Shown here in pieces: positions 730 through 24,512 of a DNA stretch of 28,342 bases (position 1 is the stretch's first letter; every line of letters begins with the position of its first letter). Source of the stretch: Catajapyx aquilonaris (taxonomy: Eukaryota); contig JYFJ02001119.1 of NCBI GenBank assembly GCA_000934665.2, forward strand, positions 62,001 to 90,342, read 5' to 3'. A program made the position numbers and the translations under genes. The notes beneath the pieces are model-generated. The model was not told the origin of the DNA. It ran no database searches and was given only the letters and a program-made list of their open reading frames with translations.

Positions 730-3700
730 TCACTTCACAGTTATGCTGAGAATCTGTATGTCATCATACGGCTTGTCTGTCTTTGGATTGGTTTTCACAT
801 TGCTGATGTTTTGTACCACTTCCATTCCTTTAACAACACGACCGAAAACAGTGTGCTTGTTATCCAACCATGGCTGAAATGAATAAAAAAACATGTACTA
901 TAAATAAATAAACAAGCTCGATGAATGAAAGTGAATCGCCATGTCATAGGGGCCGTGCAGACGAGCCAAGCTTAGCCGCGGCTGGCTGCCGCCGCGACGG
1001 TTCACACCTAGCGGCCCCCTAGCAACGCCACAGCCAGGCCACGGGCCAACTTCCTGGAAGTTGGCCAGGGCCGTGGCCAGCCGCGGCCAAGCTTGGCCCG
1101 TCTGCACGGCCCCATACTCTCCACCAGAACTTAGAATCATTAAGTTTGTAGTCCTGCAAGAATTACAAAAATTGTGTGTTGTTGTCTTGCAAGTAACTTT
1201 TATGTGAAATTACTCAAGTAGATCTGAACAAAATTCACAAAATTGAAAATTTAACTTACTGTAGGAATGACAGTGACAAAGAATTGGCTGCCATTTGTGT
1301 TGGGACCAGCGTTTGCCATGCTGAGGGTGTATGGCCGATCATGGCGAAGGTTAGGGTGAAATTCATCTTCAAATTCCCCTCCCCATATGCTCTCACCACC
1401 TGTTCCTGTACCTGTGGAGATAATTACATCAAGCTGAAACATTTTCACTCCATAACGACATAATCACAATGACATTATTCGTTCACATTTTAATGTGACA
1501 AGCACAACAATTACGCATGTAAAATATTGGCATGATTCTACCAAATACAGTCATTTTAAAAAAAACGACTAAATACATGGCTTCTGCCCAAACTGTAATC
1601 ATGCACATCCATACATGATGCCAAATGCAGTTACAAAATCCAGGTTGGTGAAATCTTCTTACCTGAGGGATCCCCAGTCTGAATCATGAAACCTTTGATG
1701 ATTCGGTGGAAGATGTGGCCATTGTAATATCCTGCCTTGCTATGCACGCAGAAGTTTTCCACACTCCTGGGACACTCCTTCAAGAAGAGCTTGACACCAA
1801 CATCACCCATCGTAGTGTGTATTGTTGCATTGTCATACAAACGCTGGGCACCTGTGAATATACAGAAGGTAATATGATTGCCTTTTCTTACGTAACAGAA
1901 TCTTATGAACATGGATGGGGTTGTTAAACAGAGTTACTTCATTCATGGGCTTTATGCAAATATTGTGCCATGAGGGACTTGAGAAAACAAGATTTACCCG
2001 ATGATTCGGTGGCAGATATGATGTCTTCTTTAGATGGTTTTTCATTGAAGACATCTCTTTCAGTATCCACACTTTTGGTGTCTTCTGGCTCTCTTCGAGT
2101 AAACAGATAAACCCGATTTTTCTTGTAAGCAGTGCAGAAGAGGGTGGGATCAACACTGACTGATTCCAGGGTGGGGTTCTCAGAGGCCTCCATCTCCACA
2201 GTAACAGCAGCTTTGGTCTTCTTGACCTTCCCCTGGAAGAGGGCAATCTGCAGGAGGCGCAGGTTCTCCGCCTTCCCCAGCATCCGCATGCATCGGTTTG
2301 TATGCAGGTTCACCAGCTTCACTCCCAACATGGTGGAGTAGAGGACAAAATTGCCTGATTCATCAAACACTATGTTTCCAAGGTTCAAGGCCTCTGACTT
2401 TTCCAAGTCTCGTTCACCTGCCATTCTAAACAAAAAAAAAAATAAATGCAAAAAAATTGGGAGATTAGTTTTGGGTGCAAAAATATATACCATACTATAG
2501 CAAAAGTGGGAGCAATTCATGCCCACTGCTTCCGGGGACCCCATAACAGAAAATAAAGATTACATGATCCATGTAACATGCAATGCCTGTATACCTTCGC
2601 CCAAACTCCATGTTTGGAAGGACCTGCTTCATCTGCTGCACTTCAGTTGAGTGTTGAAGCGATTCATCAAACACCCGGCTGAGTTTGCCTGTCTCGAAGT
2701 TGAAAATTCGCACCTGAAACAAAACTCCTTTCAGTTTACTCAAGAAGACGAACAGGTCATATTACTTTACCTTTCTGTCTGAGCTCAGAGCAGCAAATTT
2801 TTTTCCATCGTGTGAAAAACTGAGGCTAGTTGGATTGACTTTCTTCTTGGCAAACTCAAATAAGTCACTGTCCAGCTTTGAGTCAAACCTAATATTTTTG
2901 GGGAACCGGTAATCATATTTGGGGCCTGACCAGTATTCCAGCATTCTAGCCTTGTCCACAGAGACCATCACTTCATATACAGGATTGTACTGAAATATAA
3001 GAGAAACAATATAACATCAGGAAGTCACATATTTGGACAATTTTTTTTTTGTTTACTCCCACATAATAATGAGCAGGTGCCAATTGACTGCAATAGTTTC
3101 TTGTGGAATAATTAGGTGAAATTACAAGTAATTGTAATCAGATGAACACATGCAAAAGCTATGTCCAAGCCCTTTTATAAATCCATCCAGAGCATAGGCC
3201 GATTTTCTAGTCGATGTTAGAAGCCTACCTTCATCATAGTTACAGGCTTTGTATGCAACCTCTCCAAAGTGTCCATTGGTTGATTAGTGCCCTGTCCGTC
3301 ATAAACATGGATTTTGTTAGAGTCTGCTTCTGATCTGAAATTATTAAGATGTCGTTAGAAATTTGAGATGGCATGTAATATTTCACATGCGTCAGAATAC
3401 ATACACAGCTAGAGCTCTGATTGGGTCCCCAGGTGAATGTATCCATTCGCAACATTGTGGAACATAAGACACTTTCATCATGTTGATCATGTCTGGAATT
3501 ATTAAAAATTATTATCAATCTCTACAATGAAGATTCTCAATGTAATCAGTTTAGGTATTAAAACTGCTTGTTGACTGCAGTGAATTAGTAACTAACCGAA
3601 GTTAACAATGTCAAACACTTTCATGGATTTGTCATTTGAAATAGTGCAGAGGAGGGTCCCAGACGAGTTGACGCTAATATCCTGAATGTTTCCAAGGTGG

Positions 3701-5919
3701 CTGCGGAAATGCTTTACAAATTCAATTCCTTCCTCTTGCTTTTTCCAGAACTTCACGTGTCCATCGCAACTTGCTGTGATGATGAAATCAGTTCTGAAAA
3801 GAGTTTCAATGTATTAAACCAATGCAAACTCCACAAAATGAGATTGACACTCCTGCATTTCTATGCAATATGTTAACGGACAATAATTTAGTGGCAGGAA
3901 ATCTAATCATACACCAGATCCCATTAACTGCTAGAATGCAAATCATAATAATGCAACAAAAATTTCCAAACTTTTACATTCATTATGTTCTTCATAAACC
4001 CACCACAAAAATGAGAACTGCTTACTTTGTGACTGCAATATGTGTGATGACATCTCGATGCATGTAGCTCTTCTCATAGTACTCAGCCTGAGGGAGGTTG
4101 TCTAGGTAAACTTGCTCATACTGGAGTACTGGAAGAGATCGAAAAAGTAAGTTACATTAAAATCCTTCAAATCATATGCTCTGTCTATAGTGTGATAAGA
4201 AGGTAGTAACGACAAATTAAAAAGATGCAGACAAATCACAGACATGTTCTACAGCTCCACTCTCACTTATTCTCTACTTGCTAACTATTGCATGCATGAA
4301 TTAAAATCCGTAAGGTCCTGTCACACTGAGGTGTGGTGTGATATGGTGTGATACATTTTTTCACCACCTGGTATTCCTCACAAATCACCAGCCAGTCACA
4401 GTCATGAAAATGCCCAAGCTAATTGCTCATGTTTTGCTGTTTACTGGCTGATAATACCCAGATAAATTCGTCGGATTCATGCATAAGTCTGTAATCACAT
4501 TTCGTGAACTGATGGCATTAGCCGACCTTCCCTGAAGCATAAACATGAACTGGCAGCGGAGGATGGCTGACACCTTGCAGTGAATATTTACACGTATTTG
4601 CATTTGCCTTCTCTTTATTAAGAGTCATACCAGCCTACATTTTGCCTCCAGAAGTTCTGGAGTCCTCTGGGTACAATGCTTCATACATAAGTTGCGATAT
4701 TTCTATTTTCAGTTTGGCTTTCCTCTGGGGCGGTATAGTACGCATGGATGGGACAAATGATAACAGGAATTGCTCATCTGCATCCACACTTGCAGACACT
4801 GGTAGGGGTTGAGTCACCTTCTCTTTTAAAATAAGGAGCAACTGCTCTTGAAATGAGTCCATATGGGACTTGGTCCCATTCAGGGTCTGTTGGGAACTGG
4901 AAGGAGTGGTGAATGAGGTGTCAGACAAAGCTGATGATGGGACAGTCTCAATATTATGTAAATCCAACTGCCCTACTACATTCTCCACTTTATCTGGTTC
5001 ATCACTGCTGTCTTGAGAATAAACACTGTCATAGTCATCAAGTAGGTTTGAATGGCGACTCTGTGGCATCAGCTGACTTCCACCTTCCCTGAAAGTGTTA
5101 ATCGACACATGTTATCACCAACGAACAGGCTTTGAATGCAAAGTAATGATCCCAGTACATGCATATGCTTACTCCTTAATTTGCAGGCTAGGCAGCAAAA
5201 AATTAAGCATGTCGCTATAGACATATGCTGTCTTGTGCTTCTTGGCACCAGTTCCTGATTTGACGTCTTTATCCTTTTCTTTCTGATCTTTCTTGTAAGC
5301 GTCTCTGATGTTTTTCCATCTCCTCTTGCACTCACCAACTGTGCATAAAGAGAGCGTATTGTTTTAAACATGTAGTTAATTCACTTGACGTACGACATGC
5401 GGCACCCACCTGATTCGTTAAGGATTTTCGCCACCTCCTTCCACGATTTCTCCCTTTTATTCCTGTTGTCATACACCTGACCCCGAATGCCATACAGCAC
5501 TGGCCGCTTCTCCACTTCCAAAATCAACTTCTCCACATCCATTTTTCCTAAGAAAATTGAGGAGGAAGTGGGAATCCTGCCACTGCAGCCACTCCCCCTT
5601 CCATATTCCATGCTTTTTTTTAAATAAAAAAAACCGCACCACTATTTCACCACCTCAATGTGACAGAACCAAGGCTCTCAGGATATCAGCCCTGCTTTTC
5701 ATTTTCTGTCCTATTCTTTTGGAACTATCCCTTCTTATAATGAATACAGCGTCAATAAGAAATGTGTTTGTCCGGCACCTCCTTACCCTTCCGCTTCTTC
5801 GGCTTGGCGGCCTCCGATGGCAGCGGTCCAACCCATCCATCGTCCTCTTCTTCTGCGGAATTGGCCGCCTCAGAAGAACTCTCTGCAGTTCTTTTCGTCG
5901 TTCCAATGCTTTCCGCCAT
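730..5919 (-). CDS. PPWD1: Peptidylprolyl isomerase domain and WD repeat-containing protein 1 (spliceosome-associated cyclophilin), 11 coding exons, ~625 aa
   Basis: Exons (minus strand, all GT-AG, phases consistent): 5787-5919, 4026-4128, 3597-3793, 3405-3492, 3229-3334, 2771-2989, 2595-2713, 1998-2425, 1663-1851, 1260-1411, 730-873; 1878 nt total. Translation contains PPWD1 hallmarks: [86 protein letters not shown], and the cyclophilin domain [62 protein letters not shown]. Confidence 0.97.
949..1113. mobile_element. 165-bp GC-rich MITE, PIF/Harbinger-like, in PPWD1 intron 10
   Basis: 38-bp TIRs GGGGCCGTGCAGACGAGCCAAGCTTAGCCGCGGCTGGC (949-986) and 1076-1113 with 2 mismatches. Flanked by a 3-bp direct repeat ATA (946-948 and 1114-1116). 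Internal palindrome at 1044-1066. Sharply higher GC than the AT-rich intron around it. Confidence 0.85.
4455..4583 (+). pseudogene. Degenerate N-terminal fragment of a Harbinger transposase
   Basis: + strand reads [41 protein letters not shown], resembling the Harbinger transposase N-terminal pattern (P-x-K-F-x-x-Y/F-x-R-M-S-x-x-T-F-x-E-L ... R-L-A-V-T-L-R). It has in-frame stops, no DDE core, and lies inside the TIRs convergent to the MADF gene. Confidence 0.55.
4614..4619 (-). other. Candidate polyadenylation signal of the MADF-BESS gene (intronic polyA site within PPWD1)
   Basis: tttatt at 4614-4619 reads AATAAA on minus, 15 nt downstream of the MADF TAG stop. Confidence 0.5.
4635..5542 (-). 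CDS. MADF (Myb/SANT-like) and BESS domain DNA-binding protein, Harbinger-derived, 3 exons, ~250 aa, nested in PPWD1 intron 1
   Basis: Exons 5410-5542, 5173-5338, 4635-5088 with GT-AG introns of 71 and 84 nt give a 753-nt open frame. [87 protein letters not shown]-terminal BESS motif: [36 protein letters not shown]. Confidence 0.88.
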
Positions 5920-6170
5920 CTTTGCCGCTTCTTTGCAACAAAGTTTACACGTCCCAAGCGTCTCCCCCACCCAGCATACAACAACCAATCACAAGCAAGA
6001 AAATATTCATACAACCCAATCAGAACGTCGCACAAAAGATGCGCGCGCAATCATAGATAGTGTAAATGCAACTGAAGGGTGCGTTTACATATTACACTAT
6101 CCAATCCTGTGACGTATTCAACAAGTTTCTGAACGCGGGCGGGGTAATGATGGCGGCCTGTTTGAATTTT
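5920..6170 (-). promoter_or_regulatory. PPWD1 5' UTR/promoter region
   Basis: CpG-containing stretch directly upstream of the ATG. YY1-like AAGATGGCGG overlaps the start codon, GC-box GGGCGGGG at ~6137, TGACGT half-site at ~6110. Confidence 0.45.
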
Positions 6171-7717
6171 CAAAAGTACTCAACATTTTATTATGCAAAG
6201 TAATTGTTACGCGTGTTCAACTGATATAATGCAGTTTTATTGGACAAACTAGAGAGTTACATAATATTCACATACATAGCATTTTGAAAGGTCCAGTCTG
6301 AGAGGGGGAAAAAATAGGTCATTAGTTCTGAATATTGGCATACACTGGAATGAAATGGTAAAGTGAATAAAAAGTGGTCGTAAATCTTACTCGGCTGCAC
6401 TTAAACACAGCGGATAGCATCCCTGTTAAGTACGAGGGACTCTTTTTTTTAACTATACGACAACACATGAAACAAAGCTATATAAGCACCATGCAGCTGC
6501 TTTAAAGCATGTAATATCATTATAAAGAAAGTACAGTACATAACTGAGTGTCTTATAATGTAATGTGAATACAATATGTAATAAATAAACACGCACACAC
6601 CCATTCAAACTGCCTCGTCACCGTGGTATGGTACAGTACATTGCTTTTATTCGACTACGGAAAACATATATTCAGCGCAGCTTGTAAGGTCTAATTATGA
6701 CTTGCTTCAAGCATAACATATCTTGTAATTCAGGCTGGTGCACTGCTCAAGCCCACACTTCCTTAAAGGGTGGTGCGAGGTTAAGTCATAAATTGTTTAC
6801 TTCTTAATAAATTTTTGTTGCTTGTAACAATCAGGATTACATTCACTGTAAGCAATTATTCATAATTACTCCTCCCCTCATGTACTGTGGGGTTGGTGGG
6901 CAGTGCATCAATAGGCAAAAAAAAAGAGGATTGTGAATATGTTTCATAAAATTCCTTTCCCAAAAATGATATGGTTTGACTATAAAAAATTGTAGTCTTC
7001 CATATAGTTACAGTCAAACCTGCCTCGAATATATTCGTCCCCTTATGTCATGTACAAAATATTATTTTACTATTATAGTTGCAAGTTTGGTTAAGTATAA
7101 AGACTGACGGCACCGTTTTAAAATGTGTGCGTATTAATTCTGTAATTATGTGAGTTGTTGATATACTGCTCATACGCCACAAATTATTAAAAGAATTGAA
7201 GAAATTACTCGATACACAGAAATAATATCTCCCAAAAATTAATCAGAACTTTATCATATTTTTTGTCATTCCTATTTTTTTTAAAAAAAAAGGTCGTTAC
7301 TATACGAACAAAAATCAGTATTATTACACAAAACTGAACAGAAGATTAATCTTTAAATGAACCAAAAAAATTACTTGGGTTATATTATTAAAATGGGAAG
7401 ACTTGTCTAAAACATATTGCTTCTCTTGATGAAGGCACTAAAAATATGGTCTGTATATCCTGCCTAAAAGGGGCGGACAAACTGTCTCGCAATAAAGAGA
7501 CAGCAATTAGGAAGAAGGTGGCATTGGAGCCATCAGCAAACCTTGGGAAAGTGGTGTCAAACTTCCCAATTTAAGTACTCTCCGGCCATTTGGGGGGGAT
7601 GAACCCGAGTCGCCCCAAAAACAAACCGCTGTTTTAAATCCTCAGCTCAAATCCTCAAAAGGACAACTGCGGAGAAAAAATCTCGAAAAGAACGCCCAAA
7701 AAATACAATGAAGATCT

Positions 7718-10700
7718 TCACTTCTTTTTCTTGAGCTCCTTCACTTCCTTGTTCAAATAGTGCAGCACGTAGTGCAGGACAACGTCGTAGCAATACTTGT
7801 ACTCCGTCTGGTTGGAAGCAGAAACAAAATCATTTTGATCATTGTTATAGATGGACACGAGCGCAACCGAGTGCGCACCACAGTTCGCGCAGCGTACACG
7901 GTTGGAATTATCAAATGATATCTGGTTGCATGTATTGGTAAATTAGCGATGCACTTATTTCCAACGCTAGGCTTAAAGGGGAACAAAATGGCTGAAATTT
8001 GCGACGTTGCCAAGGCTTTGGAATAAACTCTGGCAACGTTGTTGTTATAACAAAGGAGCTGCGCGAGTGTGGGTGCGCACTCGGTTCATTTCTGGTGTGT
8101 TTTTTTACCAAAGACTTCTGCTATAATATACTGTCATCAGCTTTATTACAGCAGAACTCTTTGGCTTTTATTTACAAAGCTATGGTCATTGTTGCCTTCA
8201 ACAATGCTTACCATGTTTTCCACAAGATGAGGTCTGTTCCTTCTGACTGTTTTCACTGCCTGGAAGACGTCTACTTCGCCATGCTGTATCACTTGCTCTA
8301 TGCAGGCGTTGGAAGCGCAGTACACTCCACATCGTGACCGACCATCACTGTAATTATTGCAATAATTGTTGTATACTGTTGCTAAGTTCACTGTGCCAAT
8401 AAAATGCTTACGGAGAGACAACAAGGATAGTCCCGTGTCCGGTCCTTGTCCTCCATCGCTCCACCATGTTCATCAGCTCAACCAGAGAGTTGGTGGAGGT
8501 GGGCACCTTGAGACCAATGGGCCAGCAGGTCAACTGGAAGATCTGGCAGGTCTTGGAAGGAGCCTTCACTCCGGCCATCAGCTCAGTCAGAGAAATGATC
8601 TGGAGAAAAATGCACGAAAATTTGCAACAACAATCGTTTTCAAAGCCGCTAATTAAACGTGCACCAATTTTAAAAATAATAAAAAACAAACCTCGTTGCC
8701 CTGCTTCTCGTCTACTTGGATAGCAATAGTCTTCCTATGAGGTGCAATGTCCTACGCACACAACGACACACAGAGCAAAAACCATGCAGTTAGCACCAAA
8801 CTATAAAAATAAATGTGGCCAAACTGAAACACTCAACTACAACAAAATAATTAATAATTACGGAAATTATCGCGGAATTTGAGTTTGTACGTCATAAATA
8901 ATATTGTAATTGAACATTTGTTAGATTGACAATAAAAACACCACATATTCCTTTATTAGATATTGCTGATTTTTTTTTGCACAAGTTGAGTTCTTGGCAG
9001 CGTCTCATTTTCATTTGATTATGACGTCAATACTCAAGTTCCATCGCCGCGACAATACAACCAGCAACAACAAAAAAAACACTGCGAAAAACTGCATGCG
9101 AATTCCTGAAAATCCCTCCTTGCCTTTTTGTTGATGCGGAATATCCAGCTTTTAATGTTCGCGTACTTGTTGTGTGATATGGGATCTATTGTGAACACCT
9201 TTCCGTACACTTTGGATCGGCTGGATTCAGGCCATGGAGCCGGATACAACTGGAATAATTTAAGAAGAAAAAAAATGCAATCTCCATCAAGATATCGCTC
9301 AGCCAAAAAAAGAGCTGATCAAATATTTTTGCGAATATTTTTATGATCGGTCACGTACTGGGCTGTGAGGTGGATTTGCCAATACCACGACCGAATGGCA
9401 GTCGTGATCGTATATCAAGGACCAGAAATCCGAAGTGGTGTGGGGCAGAGGCCACTCGGTCACGATGTACTCTCGAGGCCTTAGGTATCCCTAAAAATAA
9501 AATGGAGAGAAAAAAAAGAAGCTTTAGGCTCGAGTTCGCATAACTATGTTTACACGTGTGTTCGGTGCATGTTCTTACGTCCACAAATACAGCGTTGATG
9601 TAATCCGTGCACAAGTTCCCTTGAAATGACGTCATGTACGGACGGTAGTTGTCAGCTGGAAGGATTTATATTGTCAACATGTGGCCCCACTTCATTGAAC
9701 CCGGATTCTCAAAGATTAATATCATGCTATTTTAGGAATATCGTCGCTCATATTTGAAGAGCAACAAATCGTCTAATTATTAAATAGTACTCGTATATAA
9801 CTAAAGTAACCATTGAAATGAGCAACATTCACTGTGAATATGATTTGTGAAGAAAATTAGCTCATACTGAACAGTAATCTTACAATCAGATTGATTTTTC
9901 AAAAGTAGGATGACACATTGACACTTACGTGGTACAATTAGGACGTCTCTGTTCTTTTCTCTGTTTCCAGGACGATGGCCACCAGCACAGTCTCCTATTG
10001 TAAACCTGGTGTTGCTCTTACTTATTTGCTGCAGCAAAAAATTCCCAATTAATATAGGCCATATCATTCTCATATGAAGTTGAACAAACACTAACCACAA
10101 ATTCTCTCTGATATTCGTTAATCTTGTTGTTTCCAGTCTTGGCAGACTTCTTCTTCAGCTTCTCTGATAGCTCGGCCACAGGAAACCACGACTGGCCGCA
10201 AGTGATGTATTCCTCCAGAGTGTCATACACAAACTTGTATTGGTCCTGCACATAAACGCAACGGTTAATAAAATATCAGAAAATTCGTGGTGCATATAAA
10301 CAGTACCTTGGATTCCACAAGTCCTTTCCTGGACTGCCGCATCTTCTTCATGTATCCATAGACGTCGAAGATGTCTTCTTCTTCGCCCAACTCCAGGTTG
10401 GCATCCACTGCTATGTACACACCGGACCGTCCTGCACCATCACTGTTGAGAAATAAATTATTCAAAATGTATGTCATACACATAATATTACACGTCTCTT
10501 ATTATATACCTGCAGTGCACTACTACTGGTCCGTCATGAATGTCCGGCTGGCTGTCCATCATTGTCCGAACCCGTCTCCTAAACTCCAGGAGAGAGCTGG
10601 AGTGAGGATTGCTGTGGCAGTACCACTCAGTATATTGAAACTGTATAATCTTCCTCTCTTCGTCTGGCTGCGGATCAGAAAAAGGCAAGCATCAGACACC

Positions 10701-13700
10701 GAAAAAAAAAAATCCGAACGTCGAGTGTGCCAACTGACCTTCTCTTCTTTCCGGAGTCGGATGGTCCTGATCATAAAGTTGGCCAACTGTTCCTCAGACA
10801 AGACGGTCACCATTATGCCTCCGTAAGTGTCTTCCTTACCTTTCTTGCCACCTGGCCAGTACTGGACACACATCACCTGCAAACATGACACGTACAGATC
10901 CAATTGCTTGATGTGCATGATGCAAAAGCAATATTTACCTTAATAAAATCAAACGTCTTTGTAAGCATGACGATGCACTTTGCATTCTTCTGCCACACCA
11001 GCCTCCAAAAATCGCCAATCGTCCGCTCATTTGGACCCTGGGTTACGATGTACGCATTGGGCTTCAACTGGCTCTGCAATTAGTTTCATTTTATAGACTT
11101 GATTATACGCATCTTAATATTAAAACAAAACTAGACTTACGTCCACATAAGACGCGTTGATATAATCCGAATCCGGCATATCCGGATCAGCTTCCAGGAC
11201 CACCCGGTTGTAATCATCTGAAAGGTTAAAAAGTTCCAATAATGTAACAAGTTCTACAGCATGGTTTGCAACACGATATACTCACATGGAATGACCTTTT
11301 GGTTCTGGTTCTTCTCCTTATTGGCCGGCTTTGACCCATGCCTACAGGAATGCCCATCTACCTTGCAGGCGGTCTGTAATCAAGACGGACAGTTTCCTCA
11401 GAAAACAATTCTTTTTATCTTCTGCTATACTTTGGGGGGGGGGGGGGGGGGGAAANGGGGGGGGGGGAAAGAAACAATGATCCGAGGCATCCCATCTATT
11501 TGGATTAGAAGTGCGCCATTCCTTTTACGAAGAATGAAAGAGGGTCGAGGTCGATTTCAGGCGAAGTGGGCCACTCTGTAGATTTAGGACCTCAGCATCA
11601 TCATGATTAATCCGTGTGTATTTATATACCTTGCCCCTCTTGTTACTATCGCTCGTGGGAAATTAGGCTAAAAGGGGGTGCCGATTTAATTTCGGGTATG
11701 CCAGGTATGTCATTTAAAATGTGGCTACACTCAGTTCAACTTGACAGCCACCTACGTCATCTTCATCAGAGAAAAATTGATAAAAATTAAGCTGTTTACA
11801 TAAACACATCGAAATAACGGATTCACTATAGTTTTGATATTAGCAGCACAACAATTTTTGCAGATAGGCTAAGGTCACGTGCTTCTTTTTCGGAAGCGCA
11901 TTGACCTAATCTCACAAACCAGAGAGATGCCACGATGGCCAAGAAGTTTTGCCAGAAATTTCTGTCATTCCTCTCTCTCTCTCTGCTCCTATATCTTTTT
12001 ATCACCGCTGCCGCCCCCTCGCCCTCAAGTTCGTATCAAGTATAAGATACTGTCGGGTTGGCAAGAAAAAGAAGAAGAAGAAGAAAGAGAGCGACATCAT
12101 ACCTGGTATTCCACCTTGAGAAGGACAGGAAACTTGCGCCTCTGCTCGCAATGCTTTTGAAAATTTTTCTTCAGGACCGGCTTGTCAACGATGCTTGATA
12201 TCACGCCTGCTTCTTCCGCTGCAACGAAAAATAGAAGTGCAGAAAAAAAATTATTCGCAAATTGAATCATGAGCCTTGCAAAATATTTGAATCCAATACA
12301 GGGGGACAAAAAGTGTTGCGCAACCTGTCATGATTCTTCACTCGTCTTTTTTTTTCTTGACGAATTAAGAGATTTATTGCGAGTCTATGCTTTGCCGAGT
12401 CTCAGTTCTGGAAAAGCAAACATTTTAGGCAAATCCTCATCGATTCCTTCGCAACTTGCACTAATCCGATTATATGTCATATAAAAAAAAAAATTCTCTT
12501 GAAAATCCCTCCCAGACATTGTCGCCTCTATATGGAAAATTCAATATAATAGCATAAAGGATCTCTCTCCATAACCAGTTCGGAATCGATATTTACGCGC
12601 CAGTATAGACGACGAAATTGAGGCTGTACATGATATGAAAAGCGCGAAGAGCTCATTATGTTGCATAATTGGGAACATTGCTTGGTCCATGAATATTCAA
12701 CGGAACACAATATAGAACAACACGAGCCATATGTTCGACTCCAATAACACTCAAGCCCCCCCCCCCCTGAGGGCCTTTAAATTAAATATGATATCCCTAT
12801 CTAAACAGCTTCCTGGCTTTACTTATAAATACTACAAGAAACACGCTCCTAAAATTAGCCCCAAAGTTCATATGCCTACAAGATGCCATAGCGTTTATTA
12901 TAACATATTATTACAGCCGTGTTTATTCCTGATTCTATCCATTAATAAGGCATTTTTTCACTTGCATAATAATTTGAATGGCGGAACGCATTGTCCCACA
13001 GTATTTATGTAATAAGCAGGTTTGAATTAATTACTGGCACGTACCATTTTTTTTACGATAATATATGGCTACAATATTGTTGGAAATAATGCAATAGGCA
13101 AAATGTTGGCTGCATAAATTCCAATCACATTTAGAGCACTTCCGGACGGTTGCACTGCATTGCAGGCACAATATTTATTATTTATTCAGTCGTGCGATAA
13201 TGCAGATATCTGTCATTATTTGTTGTTTCCAGGTGTCATGTGGATATCAATTATTTGCAGTGAAATTCGGTGCGACTTTTTTTTGCGTGAAGAAGTGCGA
13301 GGAATTGCCTCACGTCTCGGTTTTTTTGTGTTAGAAATTTATTTTGAACTTTATTATCACAGTTTTGATAACTAAAATAAGTGAAGTGTGACGATTTCTG
13401 AGAATGTGGTGGACATTTTTAAAAATGTGTAAATCGACAATAAATTGGTTTATTTTTCTTAAAAACAGTTGGTGGAGAGAACAATCTCCGCAATGTTTCT
13501 CCCTTGCAGTCTGTACAGTGTATACCTACAGTGTATCACATTATTTCGCGACAATGACGGCGAATATGCCCAGTGGCCCTCCTGGGTATATATGAAATGC
13601 TGGGAAGCAGCACGGTCCATGTTTTGCTGTGTGAGGGTTGGAAGGGGGTAGGGGGAAAAAAAAACTATGAGTCAAATTGAGCTAATGGAATTAACCTGGA

Positions 13701-22700: not shown

Positions 22701-24512
22701 CTCTTTCCCCATTTTCCAGCTATGGTAGTAAAGACTTCCGGCTAAGAAATTGTGGCGAAAATGCCAAAAATGCAAAAACCTTTCAAATCCATAATTTGAA
22801 TGAAATGCTACTAGATAATTTCTCGTTCGTACAGTTATTGCAATCTTCATTTTTCATCTGCATATTTCCAATTATTTTTCTGAACAATTGAAAGGACTTT
22901 TTCCAGCGACATTTACGGCCTCCAGCATCAATCCCACACCATGCCTTTTTTTTCTTCCCAAGAAAAAGTGGGTTTATCAGTATTTGCCGAACACCCTGCG
23001 CTAAATCCGGGGTCATTTTGAGACGCATAAAACTGGTTTTACTACTCCTAGGAAAACGCAAGACGCAGTTGCAACTTCACATCCGTTTCGGTCCATCGGA
23101 CTAGTGTAAATTCCTTCAAAAGCTCTGCATTTTTTTTAAAAAAAAAACAGAAACGCTCTTCTTGGTTAATAAAAATCACCTGCTTTGATAACCGGTTGTG
23201 CAATAATTCCTCCCCAGTGGTGAAACCGCAAAAAAAGGCCGTTTGATCCCATATTTGATCGCGTTTTAAACCAACACGTGTGCACCCCTAATAAGCTGCA
23301 TGGCCGTAATTTTTTTCCTTTTTTGCTCACCGCTTCATTTGGGACCCATTTCGTTGGGTCCCTTTGGATGAAGTGAAAAAAAAAAAAAATCGGGGCCATC
23401 CCTTTGATTAGTTTACACCGCCGATGCAATGGAGCCATCAAGGGGAGATTTGGCTTTGATCCCAGTGGCAAAATCCGGCTTGCGAAGTCCCCCACCCATC
23501 ATTCGCGTTGCCAAAATACGAAAAAGAAAAAGTGTCGGTTACCTAACGTCGTCGGGGTTCACACTTTGGGTCGTTGGTTTACTGTAGGAGTCGAGACAAC
23601 TTACGAACACAACCGAGTGCGCACCACAGTCTGCGCAGAGTGCACGGTTGGAATCAATGATATCTGGTAAGCTCTCATCTCACTAAAAAGTTTCGAGCGA
23701 AAATTTCATTCAAAAAAGGAGCAATTTCGCCCAGTGCTCATTTTGAGTGAATTTCACTGTAGTGCAAAGATTTAGCCTACATTAACTCACATCGAATGGA
23801 AAATTACTCGATTTCTTAAAGAATGTACATAGTTGGTGCACTGCACTACACTTATTTCCAACGCTACGCTTGCGGGAACAAAATGGTCGACGTTGCGACG
23901 TTGTCAGAACCCATAACAACGAAGCTGCGCGAGAATGGGTGCGCCGCACTCGGTAGTCACGTGTTAGTTGTCCCATCAGAGACAAGCAACTTTTTACGAA
24001 CGCAAGCGAGTGCGCACAACAGTATGCGCATAGTGCACGGTTGGAATTATCAATGATATATGGTATTATAGTTGGTGTACTGGTAGATACACATTGCACT
24101 TATTTCCAACGCTACGATTGGGGGGGGGGGGGGGNNNNNNNNGGGGGGGGGGGAGGGAACAAAATGGCCGACGTTTGTCAGCTGCGCGAGAGTGGGTGCG
24201 CCGCACTCGGTAGTCACATGTCAGTTGTCCAATCAGAGACATGCTGATTTGTTGGTCCCAACAACAACCGCAACGACTGTCGTGTGAACACGAGCCAATA
24301 AACTCACCCAGCGAGAAGAGCCCACTGTTGAGCATGGACAACTTGATGGTGTTGGGAATGGACACGAGCGAGGTGCTGGCCGATGCCAAGTACTTGGTCT
24401 TCTTCTTCGGCTTCTCCAGGTCCGAGTACCTGGTGCTGGACCTGGACCTGTGCTTGTGTCTCCTCTCGCTGTGCTGGCTGCTGGTGCCACCCTGCCTCTC
24501 GCTGTGACCCAT
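7718..24512 (-). CDS. Ptp36E: Cytoplasmic tandem-domain (D1+D2) protein tyrosine phosphatase-family protein, Ptp36E-like, probably a pseudophosphatase; 16 coding exons, ~683 aa
   Basis: Exons: 24308-24512, 12103-12218, 11286-11373, 11141-11217, 10939-11073, 10739-10876, 10510-10667, 10307-10442, 10096-10245, 9929-10028, 9579-9655, 9359-9490, 9124-9249 (GC donor), 8412-8599, 8212-8347, 7718-7807; 2052 nt, phases consistent. D1 motifs: DYINASYVD, YIVTQGP, DFWRLVW, IVMLT, CVQYWP, VVVHCSDGAGRSG, QYKFVY. D2 motifs: KNRD, DYINAVFVD, DFWSLIYDH, VVSPDGRSRCG, EYKYCY. No signal peptide or TM helix. The PTP family call is firm. The Ptp36E orthology is from recall and needs a reciprocal BLAST, and the exon 1-2 link across 12 kb is inferred from phase. 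Confidence 0.9.
7856..8086. mobile_element. Non-autonomous repeat with subterminal inverted repeats (Helentron/DINE-1-like), copy A, in the last PTP intron
   Basis: Perfect 15-bp inverted repeat AACCGAGTGCGCACC (7865-7879) / GGTGCGCACTCGGTT (8072-8086). Internal blocks CACGGTTGGAATTATCAA, CACTTATTTCCAACGCTA and GGGAACAAAATGG are shared with the copies at 23.6-24.2 kb. Confidence 0.7.
12063..12086 (+). repeat. Short (GAA)n purine microsatellite
   Basis: aagaaaaagaagaagaagaagaaa in PTP intron 2, close to the exon 2 donor. Confidence 0.5.
23601..23990. mobile_element. Same repeat family, copy B, carrying an extra ~160-bp insertion
   Basis: Starts TTACGAACACAACCGAGTGCGCACCACAGT, contains CACTTATTTCCAACGCTACG and GGGAACAAAATGG, ends CGCACTCGGTAGTCACGTGTTAGTTGTCCCATCAGAGACAAGCAAC. 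The segment ~23670-23828 is absent from copies A and C. Confidence 0.7.
23991..24245. mobile_element. Same repeat family, copy C, head-to-tail with copy B, with a central poly-G tract
   Basis: Begins TTTTTACGAACGCAAGCGAGTGCGCACAACAGT immediately after copy B, has the same conserved blocks, and ends CGCACTCGGTAGTCACATGTCAGTTGTCCAATCAGAGACA. Poly-G with N gap at ~24120-24153. Confidence 0.7.

Follow-up and report, generated by a model that had tools for sequence, protein, structure and literature searches.

The stretch analysed here (the window: 28,342 nucleotides (nt), positions 62,001-90,342 of the forward strand of contig JYFJ02001119.1 in the Catajapyx aquilonaris assembly GCA_000934665.2) carries the gene of the spliceosomal cyclophilin PPWD1, and a second gene, whose product combines a MADF domain and a BESS motif, is nested in sense orientation within PPWD1 intron 1. 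Both genes are read on the minus strand, and all gene coordinates are given as window positions. Roughly an even chance is given to the reading that the nested gene is an expressed, lineage-specific MADF-BESS gene which is transcribed mainly from a start of its own. The domains, the intact frame, the transcription, both internal splices and the canonical splicing of PPWD1 exons 1, 2 and 3 were observed; we infer that the MADF-BESS gene has its own start site, serves a function and comes from a transposon. A sequence-only reading of the same DNA had proposed that PPWD1 exon 1 can be spliced in frame into the MADF-BESS gene, and every coordinate that it gave was found to be correct when read from the sequence and then recomputed.

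The stretch was present in one public run, X1, which is stored as contigs, is of unrecorded kind and contained 0.82 of the sampled words, a share that carries no information on levels of expression; no run recorded as RNA was listed as containing the stretch. When the X1 contigs were aligned to positions 3500-6300, three contigs with four joints were obtained, which left 5511-5786 and 4595-4670 uncovered. All four joints end in CT..AC on the plus strand, that is, GT..AG on the minus strand. Because the contigs skip four introns belonging to two genes, X1 was taken to be derived from RNA, and on that footing the nested MADF-BESS gene is transcribed and precisely spliced in this run. A contig of 685 nt follows the MADF gene through 5510-5410, 5338-5172 and 5087-4671, and the junctions 5410>5338 and 5173>5088, both of which had been predicted from the sequence, were found in it exactly where they had been placed. 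A contig of 328 nt (5920-5787, 4128-4026 and 3793-3703) represents the canonical PPWD1 exon 1-2-3 message, with the joints 5787>4128 and 4026>3793; no joints other than these four were seen in the X1 contigs. The depths given for the contigs, 7.57 for that of the MADF gene and 2.64 for that of PPWD1 exons 1-3, cannot serve to rank the two genes. The 685-nt contig differs from the window at two positions, 5220 and 5265, each being G>A on the plus strand and each falling on a synonymous third position of the MADF frame, and X1 therefore comes from another haplotype, another individual or a close relative. That two of two differences are synonymous is a very weak hint of constraint.

MADF exon 1 (5410..5547) consists of a 5-nt leader, which follows a candidate acceptor, and of 44 codons plus one base that run from the ATG at 5542-5540 to the donor CAG/GTGGGT; its peptide forms the first half of the MADF domain, and the X1 contig covers it from 5510 to 5410, where it is joined to 5338. 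The second half of the domain is encoded by exon 2 (5173..5338, 166 nt), for which both flanking joints are present in the contig. The coding part of exon 3 (4635..5088, covered from 5087 to 4671) contains the BESS motif and ends with the stop codon TAG at 4637-4635. The sequence AATAAA, a candidate poly(A) signal which had been said to follow the MADF stop by 15 nt, is indeed present at that distance, at 4619-4614. Over the three exons the frame comprises 753 nt (250 codons and the stop) and has no internal stop. When the exon peptides were compared with Pfam, for which the curated cut-offs are 22 bits (MADF) and 21 bits (BESS), PF10545 (MADF_DNA_bdg) matched the exon 1 peptide with 30.9 bits (residues 6-42, profile 1-37) and the exon 2 peptide with 27.1 bits (profile 44-84), and PF02944 (BESS) matched the exon 3 peptide with 43.4 bits (residues 102-135). 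All three matches lie above the cut-offs, in agreement with the MADF-BESS gene model of the earlier reading, and the MADF domain is interrupted by the confirmed intron 5409-5339. The layout of MADF followed by BESS is the architecture of stand-alone MADF-BESS regulators. The protein, of about 250 residues, would have the N-terminal MADF (Myb/SANT-like) domain as its DNA-binding part and the C-terminal BESS motif as its protein-interaction part. Within MADF exon 1 there is also a 14-nt direct repeat (5507-5520 and 5528-5541; 93% identical, 21 nt apart), which encodes a repeated VEK motif.

The identity of the host gene, PPWD1, was borne out by matches to the Protein Data Bank (PDB) for two of its exons. 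The coding part of PPWD1 exon 1 (5787..5919; 133 nt, 44 codons plus one base, phase 1) begins with the ATG at 5919-5917 and ends at the donor AGG/GTAAGG (GT at 5786-5785), as read from the sequence and recomputed; in the X1 contig it is covered from 5920 to 5787 and continues at 4128. Exon 2 (4026..4128, 103 nt) is bounded in the contig by the joints to 5787 and 3793, and its peptide matches residues 67-98 of human PPWD1 (5yzg_2) with E 5.8e-11. Exon 3 (3597..3793), which encodes the first WD repeat and is likewise reached by the contig, matches residues 100-165 of the same protein with E 7.6e-30; in both cases human PPWD1 was the best or only PDB match. Exons of the cyclophilin domain were found downstream by a domain scan of open reading frames (ORFs) of the window. 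On these matches the exons that flank the nested gene are orthologous to those of PPWD1, and the intron between them, intron 1, measures 1658 nt. The coding parts of PPWD1 exon 1 (5787-5919) and MADF exon 1 (5410-5542) are identical in length, at 133 nt each, and each ends in phase 1. Three ATTGG motifs (reverse CCAAT) were noticed in the PPWD1 promoter, at approximately 6017, 5989 and 6102.

The position of the MADF domain relative to the start codon points to a complete gene. Counted from the ATG at 5542, MADF begins at residue 6 in the Pfam match. When the exon 3 peptide was used in a phmmer search of 1.84 billion representatives, no match at or below 1e-10 was obtained; there were 19 weak matches (best E 1.2e-6, identities 24-48%), of which 18 contain BESS and 7 contain MADF. 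All 19 relatives were scanned, and in each of the four with a MADF match that sets in at profile position 1-2 (P0009, P0012, P0018 and P0022) the domain also begins at residue 6. One of them, P0018, could be aligned with the exon 1 peptide from Met-1 onward, with 18 identities in 41 positions. The N-terminus typical of the family coincides with the ATG at 5542, and the frame is therefore a complete stand-alone gene, for whose expression no host exon is needed.

Translation would most likely start from the ATG at 5542, which is preceded by A at -3 and followed by G at +4, and the MADF messages most likely begin within the 239 nt that separate PPWD1 exon 1 from this codon's leader (5548..5786). 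This stretch would be promoter and 5' untranslated region of the MADF gene if the gene has its own start, and it would be an intron if the gene is fused to PPWD1 exon 1. It contains a TATA-like tract, TATTTAAAAAAAA, at about 5626-5614, and an ACTTCCT motif. The TATA-like tract would set the start of transcription near 5595, which is below the upstream ATGs at 5611 and 5604 and 50-odd nt before the ATG at 5542. A promoter of its own is thus suggested for the MADF gene by the TATA-like tract, by the strong context of the ATG at 5542 and by the retention of the native start codon. The ATG at 5611 (5609-5611) shares the frame of the MADF ATG, and no stop separates the two, the frame being open from 5641; a message that began upstream of 5611 could lengthen the MADF-BESS protein by 23 residues.

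On the reading of a nested gene with its own start, the PPWD1 pre-mRNA would have to be spliced across the nested gene (5787>4128) and to read through the nested poly(A) signal. The donors and acceptors of the MADF gene are functional and lie in sense orientation in intron 1, so that the spliceosome meets them in every PPWD1 pre-mRNA. Since the nested splice sites work and the leader resembles a strong acceptor, some chimeras with PPWD1 exon 1 may form, as a by-product or as a minor isoform. Such chimeras at a low level would be unsurprising; a functional fusion protein is the stronger claim.

That stronger claim is possible, although we consider it rather doubtful. In this form the PPWD1 promoter would drive a second message, as a minor or a major isoform, in which exon 1 is joined from 5787 to 5547 and is followed by the three MADF exons and by intronic polyadenylation. 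The product would have 296 residues, with the first 44 residues of PPWD1, including KPKKRK, placed ahead of the complete MADF-BESS protein. A host-transposon fusion might then have been caught early, with one promoter giving rise either to the spliceosomal cyclophilin or to a DNA-binding protein that bears the basic N-terminal tag of PPWD1, an idea we hold just as tentatively. The arithmetic behind this proposal (exon 1 in phase 1, an intron of 239 nt and an in-frame product of about 296 residues) was reproduced on recomputation, the join 5787>5547 being in frame and open for 296 codons. The candidate 3' splice site is TTCCTCCTCAATTTTCTTAG (5548..5568), with the AG at 5549-5548 followed by G, 5 nt before the MADF ATG. 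For comparison, a crude filter demanded of each AG site that at least 16 of the 18 positions from -20 to -3 be pyrimidines, that position -3 itself be one and that the preceding 14 nt be free of AG. Of 3091 AG sites on the two strands of the window, only 11 passed (5 of them on the minus strand), and the candidate is among these 11, so that its description as a good acceptor was upheld; four RNA-confirmed acceptors nearby have 11, 12, 13 and 15 pyrimidines of 18. By a rough post-hoc estimate, the probability that a given ATG has such a site in the 30 nt upstream of it, on the right strand, is about 0.5%. When donors were ranked by a crude consensus score, the proven donor at 5787 reached 6.5, and no other donor from 5548 to 6100 exceeded 4.5 (the range for confirmed donors is 4.5-7.0). 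The downstream MADF splice sites are functional and are carried by every PPWD1 pre-mRNA, and the mechanism has a precedent in the host-transposase fusions described for tetrapods (bioRxiv 10.1101/2020.05.07.082677). The CpG observed/expected ratio, calculated in small windows, is 0.24 in 5500-5699, just upstream of and around the MADF ATG, versus 0.96-1.38 in the windows spanning 5700-6299, which makes the PPWD1 promoter the CpG-rich one. However, the one contig that contains PPWD1 exon 1 continues from there into exon 2 and not to 5547; the MADF frame retains its family-typical start codon in a strong context and so does not need a fusion for its expression; no domain was recognised by Pfam in the 44 residues that the host part would add; and an in-frame phase by itself has a 1-in-3 chance, as the sequence-only reading had itself allowed. 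The junction 5787>5547 falls outside the cover of X1: the MADF contig breaks off at 5510, which is 37 nt before the candidate acceptor and 32 nt into the coding sequence, and contigs of one small run cannot show the absence of a rare isoform.

Several of these observations, together with the searches for relatives, weigh against a nested gene with its own start. The leader is an acceptor-like site that is richer in pyrimidines than the four confirmed acceptors, which a model with its own promoter leaves unexplained. The donor at 5787 is the only strong one upstream, which makes PPWD1 exon 1 the obvious partner should the acceptor be used. Among nearby promoters, that of PPWD1 alone is CpG-island-like, although this is a weak point. 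The 5' end of the MADF message lies beyond the contig cover, and we infer, rather than observe, a promoter of its own. Furthermore, no close ortholog was found in any protein or metagenome collection searched. A word-based search of a set of 5.8 billion proteins with the exon 3 peptide gave no match among 47 candidates of near length and none among 619 longer ones; the PPWD1 exon-1 peptide, searched at longer lengths in the same set, gave none among 10 candidates, and the collection is evidently without this taxon. None of 184 pattern matches at metagenome loci was confirmed, and the ESM Atlas gave leads at the family level only (BESS clusters at 0.92-0.93 and one MADF+BESS cluster at 0.84).

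Two further readings are both considered unlikely. One of them comprises other 5' structures of the MADF message or other chimeras, in three forms. A short non-coding first exon within the 239 nt might be spliced to 5547 from the weak donors near 5640-5654; scores of 3.5-4.5 were obtained for the donor-like GTs at 5640, 5651 and 5654, and the confirmed donor at 5173 is no better, with 4.5. PPWD1 exon 1 might be joined to the acceptor at 5338, which would place the N-terminus of PPWD1 before half a MADF domain and the BESS motif; this join is in frame because MADF exon 1 ends in the same phase as PPWD1 exon 1 (phase 1), and it is open for 250 codons, but a protein with half a MADF domain would have no obvious function. 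MADF exon 1, which measures 138 nt when the 5-nt leader is counted, might also be included in the PPWD1 mRNA as a frame-preserving cassette, and the chain exon 1 > 5547..5410 > 4128 keeps an open frame through PPWD1 exon 3. Against all three stands the observation that none of their joints occurs in the X1 contigs, which contain the four canonical joints only. Two other ways of fusing the genes were tried and rejected: if the intron is retained, the first stop is met at codon 55, which is 11 codons inside the intron, and if PPWD1 exon 1 is joined to 5088, the frame is lost and a stop is reached at codon 50. The other reading, to which we assign a similarly small probability, is that the MADF exons are a decaying transposon relic, spliced as noise from the PPWD1 pre-mRNA or from spurious transcription and giving no functional protein. 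The intronic location, which is that of many dead transposon fragments, and the lack of a close relative in any protein search agree with it. It is opposed by the 250-codon frame, which is intact over three exons and has both domains above the Pfam cut-offs, by the precisely spliced contig in X1, and by the two synonymous differences among the two found between contig and window; moreover, no terminal repeats or transposase remnants that would mark a recent insertion were detected in the repeat search of 3900-6300 and in the 24 ORFs scanned. An expressed gene with its own start is the reading to which the largest share of probability was given.

The description of the nested gene as transposon-derived draws on literature that ties MADF proteins to PIF/Harbinger elements: gene 2 of PIF/Harbinger encodes a Myb-like/MADF protein, which is described as having been domesticated repeatedly (PMC9710019). 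Around the window gene itself, neither terminal repeats nor a transposase was found. The repeat search of 3900-6300 gave four short inverted pairs of 12-16 nt, none of which flanks the gene sensibly, so that terminal repeats, tried as proof of a transposon, are not available; the window has 103 ORFs of 70 amino acids or more, and no transposase domain was detected in the 24 of them that were selected for a domain scan; and the 1658-nt intron has no room for a companion DDE transposase gene. A transposon origin of the window gene is therefore suggested at the level of the family, by analogy with the published cases.

Upstream of the PPWD1 promoter, the neighbouring gene at 8149-10939 (minus strand, as is PPWD1) is the 3' part of a protein-tyrosine-phosphatase gene, in which three ORF pieces match the Y_phosphatase family. 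Two of these pieces, 10268-10498 and 8149-8469, both match the C-terminal region of the profile, approximately positions 170-230 of 234, which points to two tandem phosphatase domains. The assembly has runs of N at 11456 (1 base) and 24135-24142 (8 bases), which are gaps or masked bases.

Genes nested in the introns of others in sense orientation must coexist with the splicing of their hosts and are natural birthplaces of chimeric genes. The present locus has each structural ingredient of an exon-trap fusion: a strong in-frame acceptor-like site, proven downstream splice sites and a candidate poly(A) signal. If the fusion is real, the locus would offer a clear and readily testable case of a spliceosomal gene taking part in a fusion at birth, with three twists, namely a Myb-like accessory protein in place of a transposase, a host part without a domain and a spliceosomal host gene. 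The route of 'transposase capture' would thereby extend to a Myb-like accessory protein of the PIF/Harbinger type, with a core splicing factor as host, and use of the intronic terminal exon might, speculatively, also lower the output of PPWD1. If the fusion is not real, the locus would hold an ordinary lineage-specific MADF-BESS gene, domesticated or orphan, of a kind that PIF/Harbinger domestication commonly yields, and the strong acceptor-like tract would be no more than a stretch of its leader. No paper that pairs PPWD1 with MADF was found in the literature search, and PPWD1 is mentioned in none of the 10 papers listed by another search.

The nearest comparison for a fusion is with the host-transposase fusions of tetrapods, of which Cosby et al. 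describe at least 94, formed mainly by alternative splicing onto transposon acceptors, with KRABINER, SETMAR and PGBD3-CSB among the cases (bioRxiv 10.1101/2020.05.07.082677). As there, a host intron carries, in sense orientation, a DNA-binding module of transposon-linked type, whose reading frame has an acceptor-like site just upstream, and the module has its own terminal exon, a candidate poly(A) signal and a phase that matches the upstream host exon. The tetrapod cases are fusion transcripts, whereas the join considered here is a candidate read from the genome; the module is of the MADF/Myb-like accessory type and is not a transposase; PPWD1 would contribute 44 residues without a Pfam domain and not a regulatory domain such as KRAB; and in the searches made the window copy has no terminal repeats and no transposase.

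For a stand-alone gene, the comparison is with domesticated PIF/Harbinger genes. NAIF1 and HARBI1 form a pair of domesticated Harbinger genes of vertebrates, and the window gene resembles this pair in that a Myb-like accessory protein of the PIF/Harbinger type would have been kept as a host gene; it differs in that no transposase-derived partner was found in the 24 scanned ORFs of the window. We know of no BESS motif in NAIF1. HARBI1 is mentioned in PMC9710019. In the teleost Miichthys miiuy, a stand-alone MADF gene, ADF-1L, is described as derived from Harbinger3_DR (PMC11893794). By that description, ADF-1L is like the window gene a MADF-domain gene and is expressed from its own transcript, as the window gene probably is; it is proposed that a PIF/Harbinger Myb-like gene was domesticated in it as a DNA-binding regulator. 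In contrast to the window gene, it is reported there to adjoin a 7SL gene and not to lie inside PPWD1 (PMC11893794).

A further comparison is with the MADF-BESS family as a whole, to which the window protein shows only distant similarity (best E 1.2e-6, 24-48% identity). Drosophila Adf-1, Stonewall and their relatives are members of this family. The likeness consists in an N-terminal MADF domain from residue 6, a C-terminal BESS motif and a low-complexity linker, and this layout recurs in the relatives P0012, P0018 and P0022.

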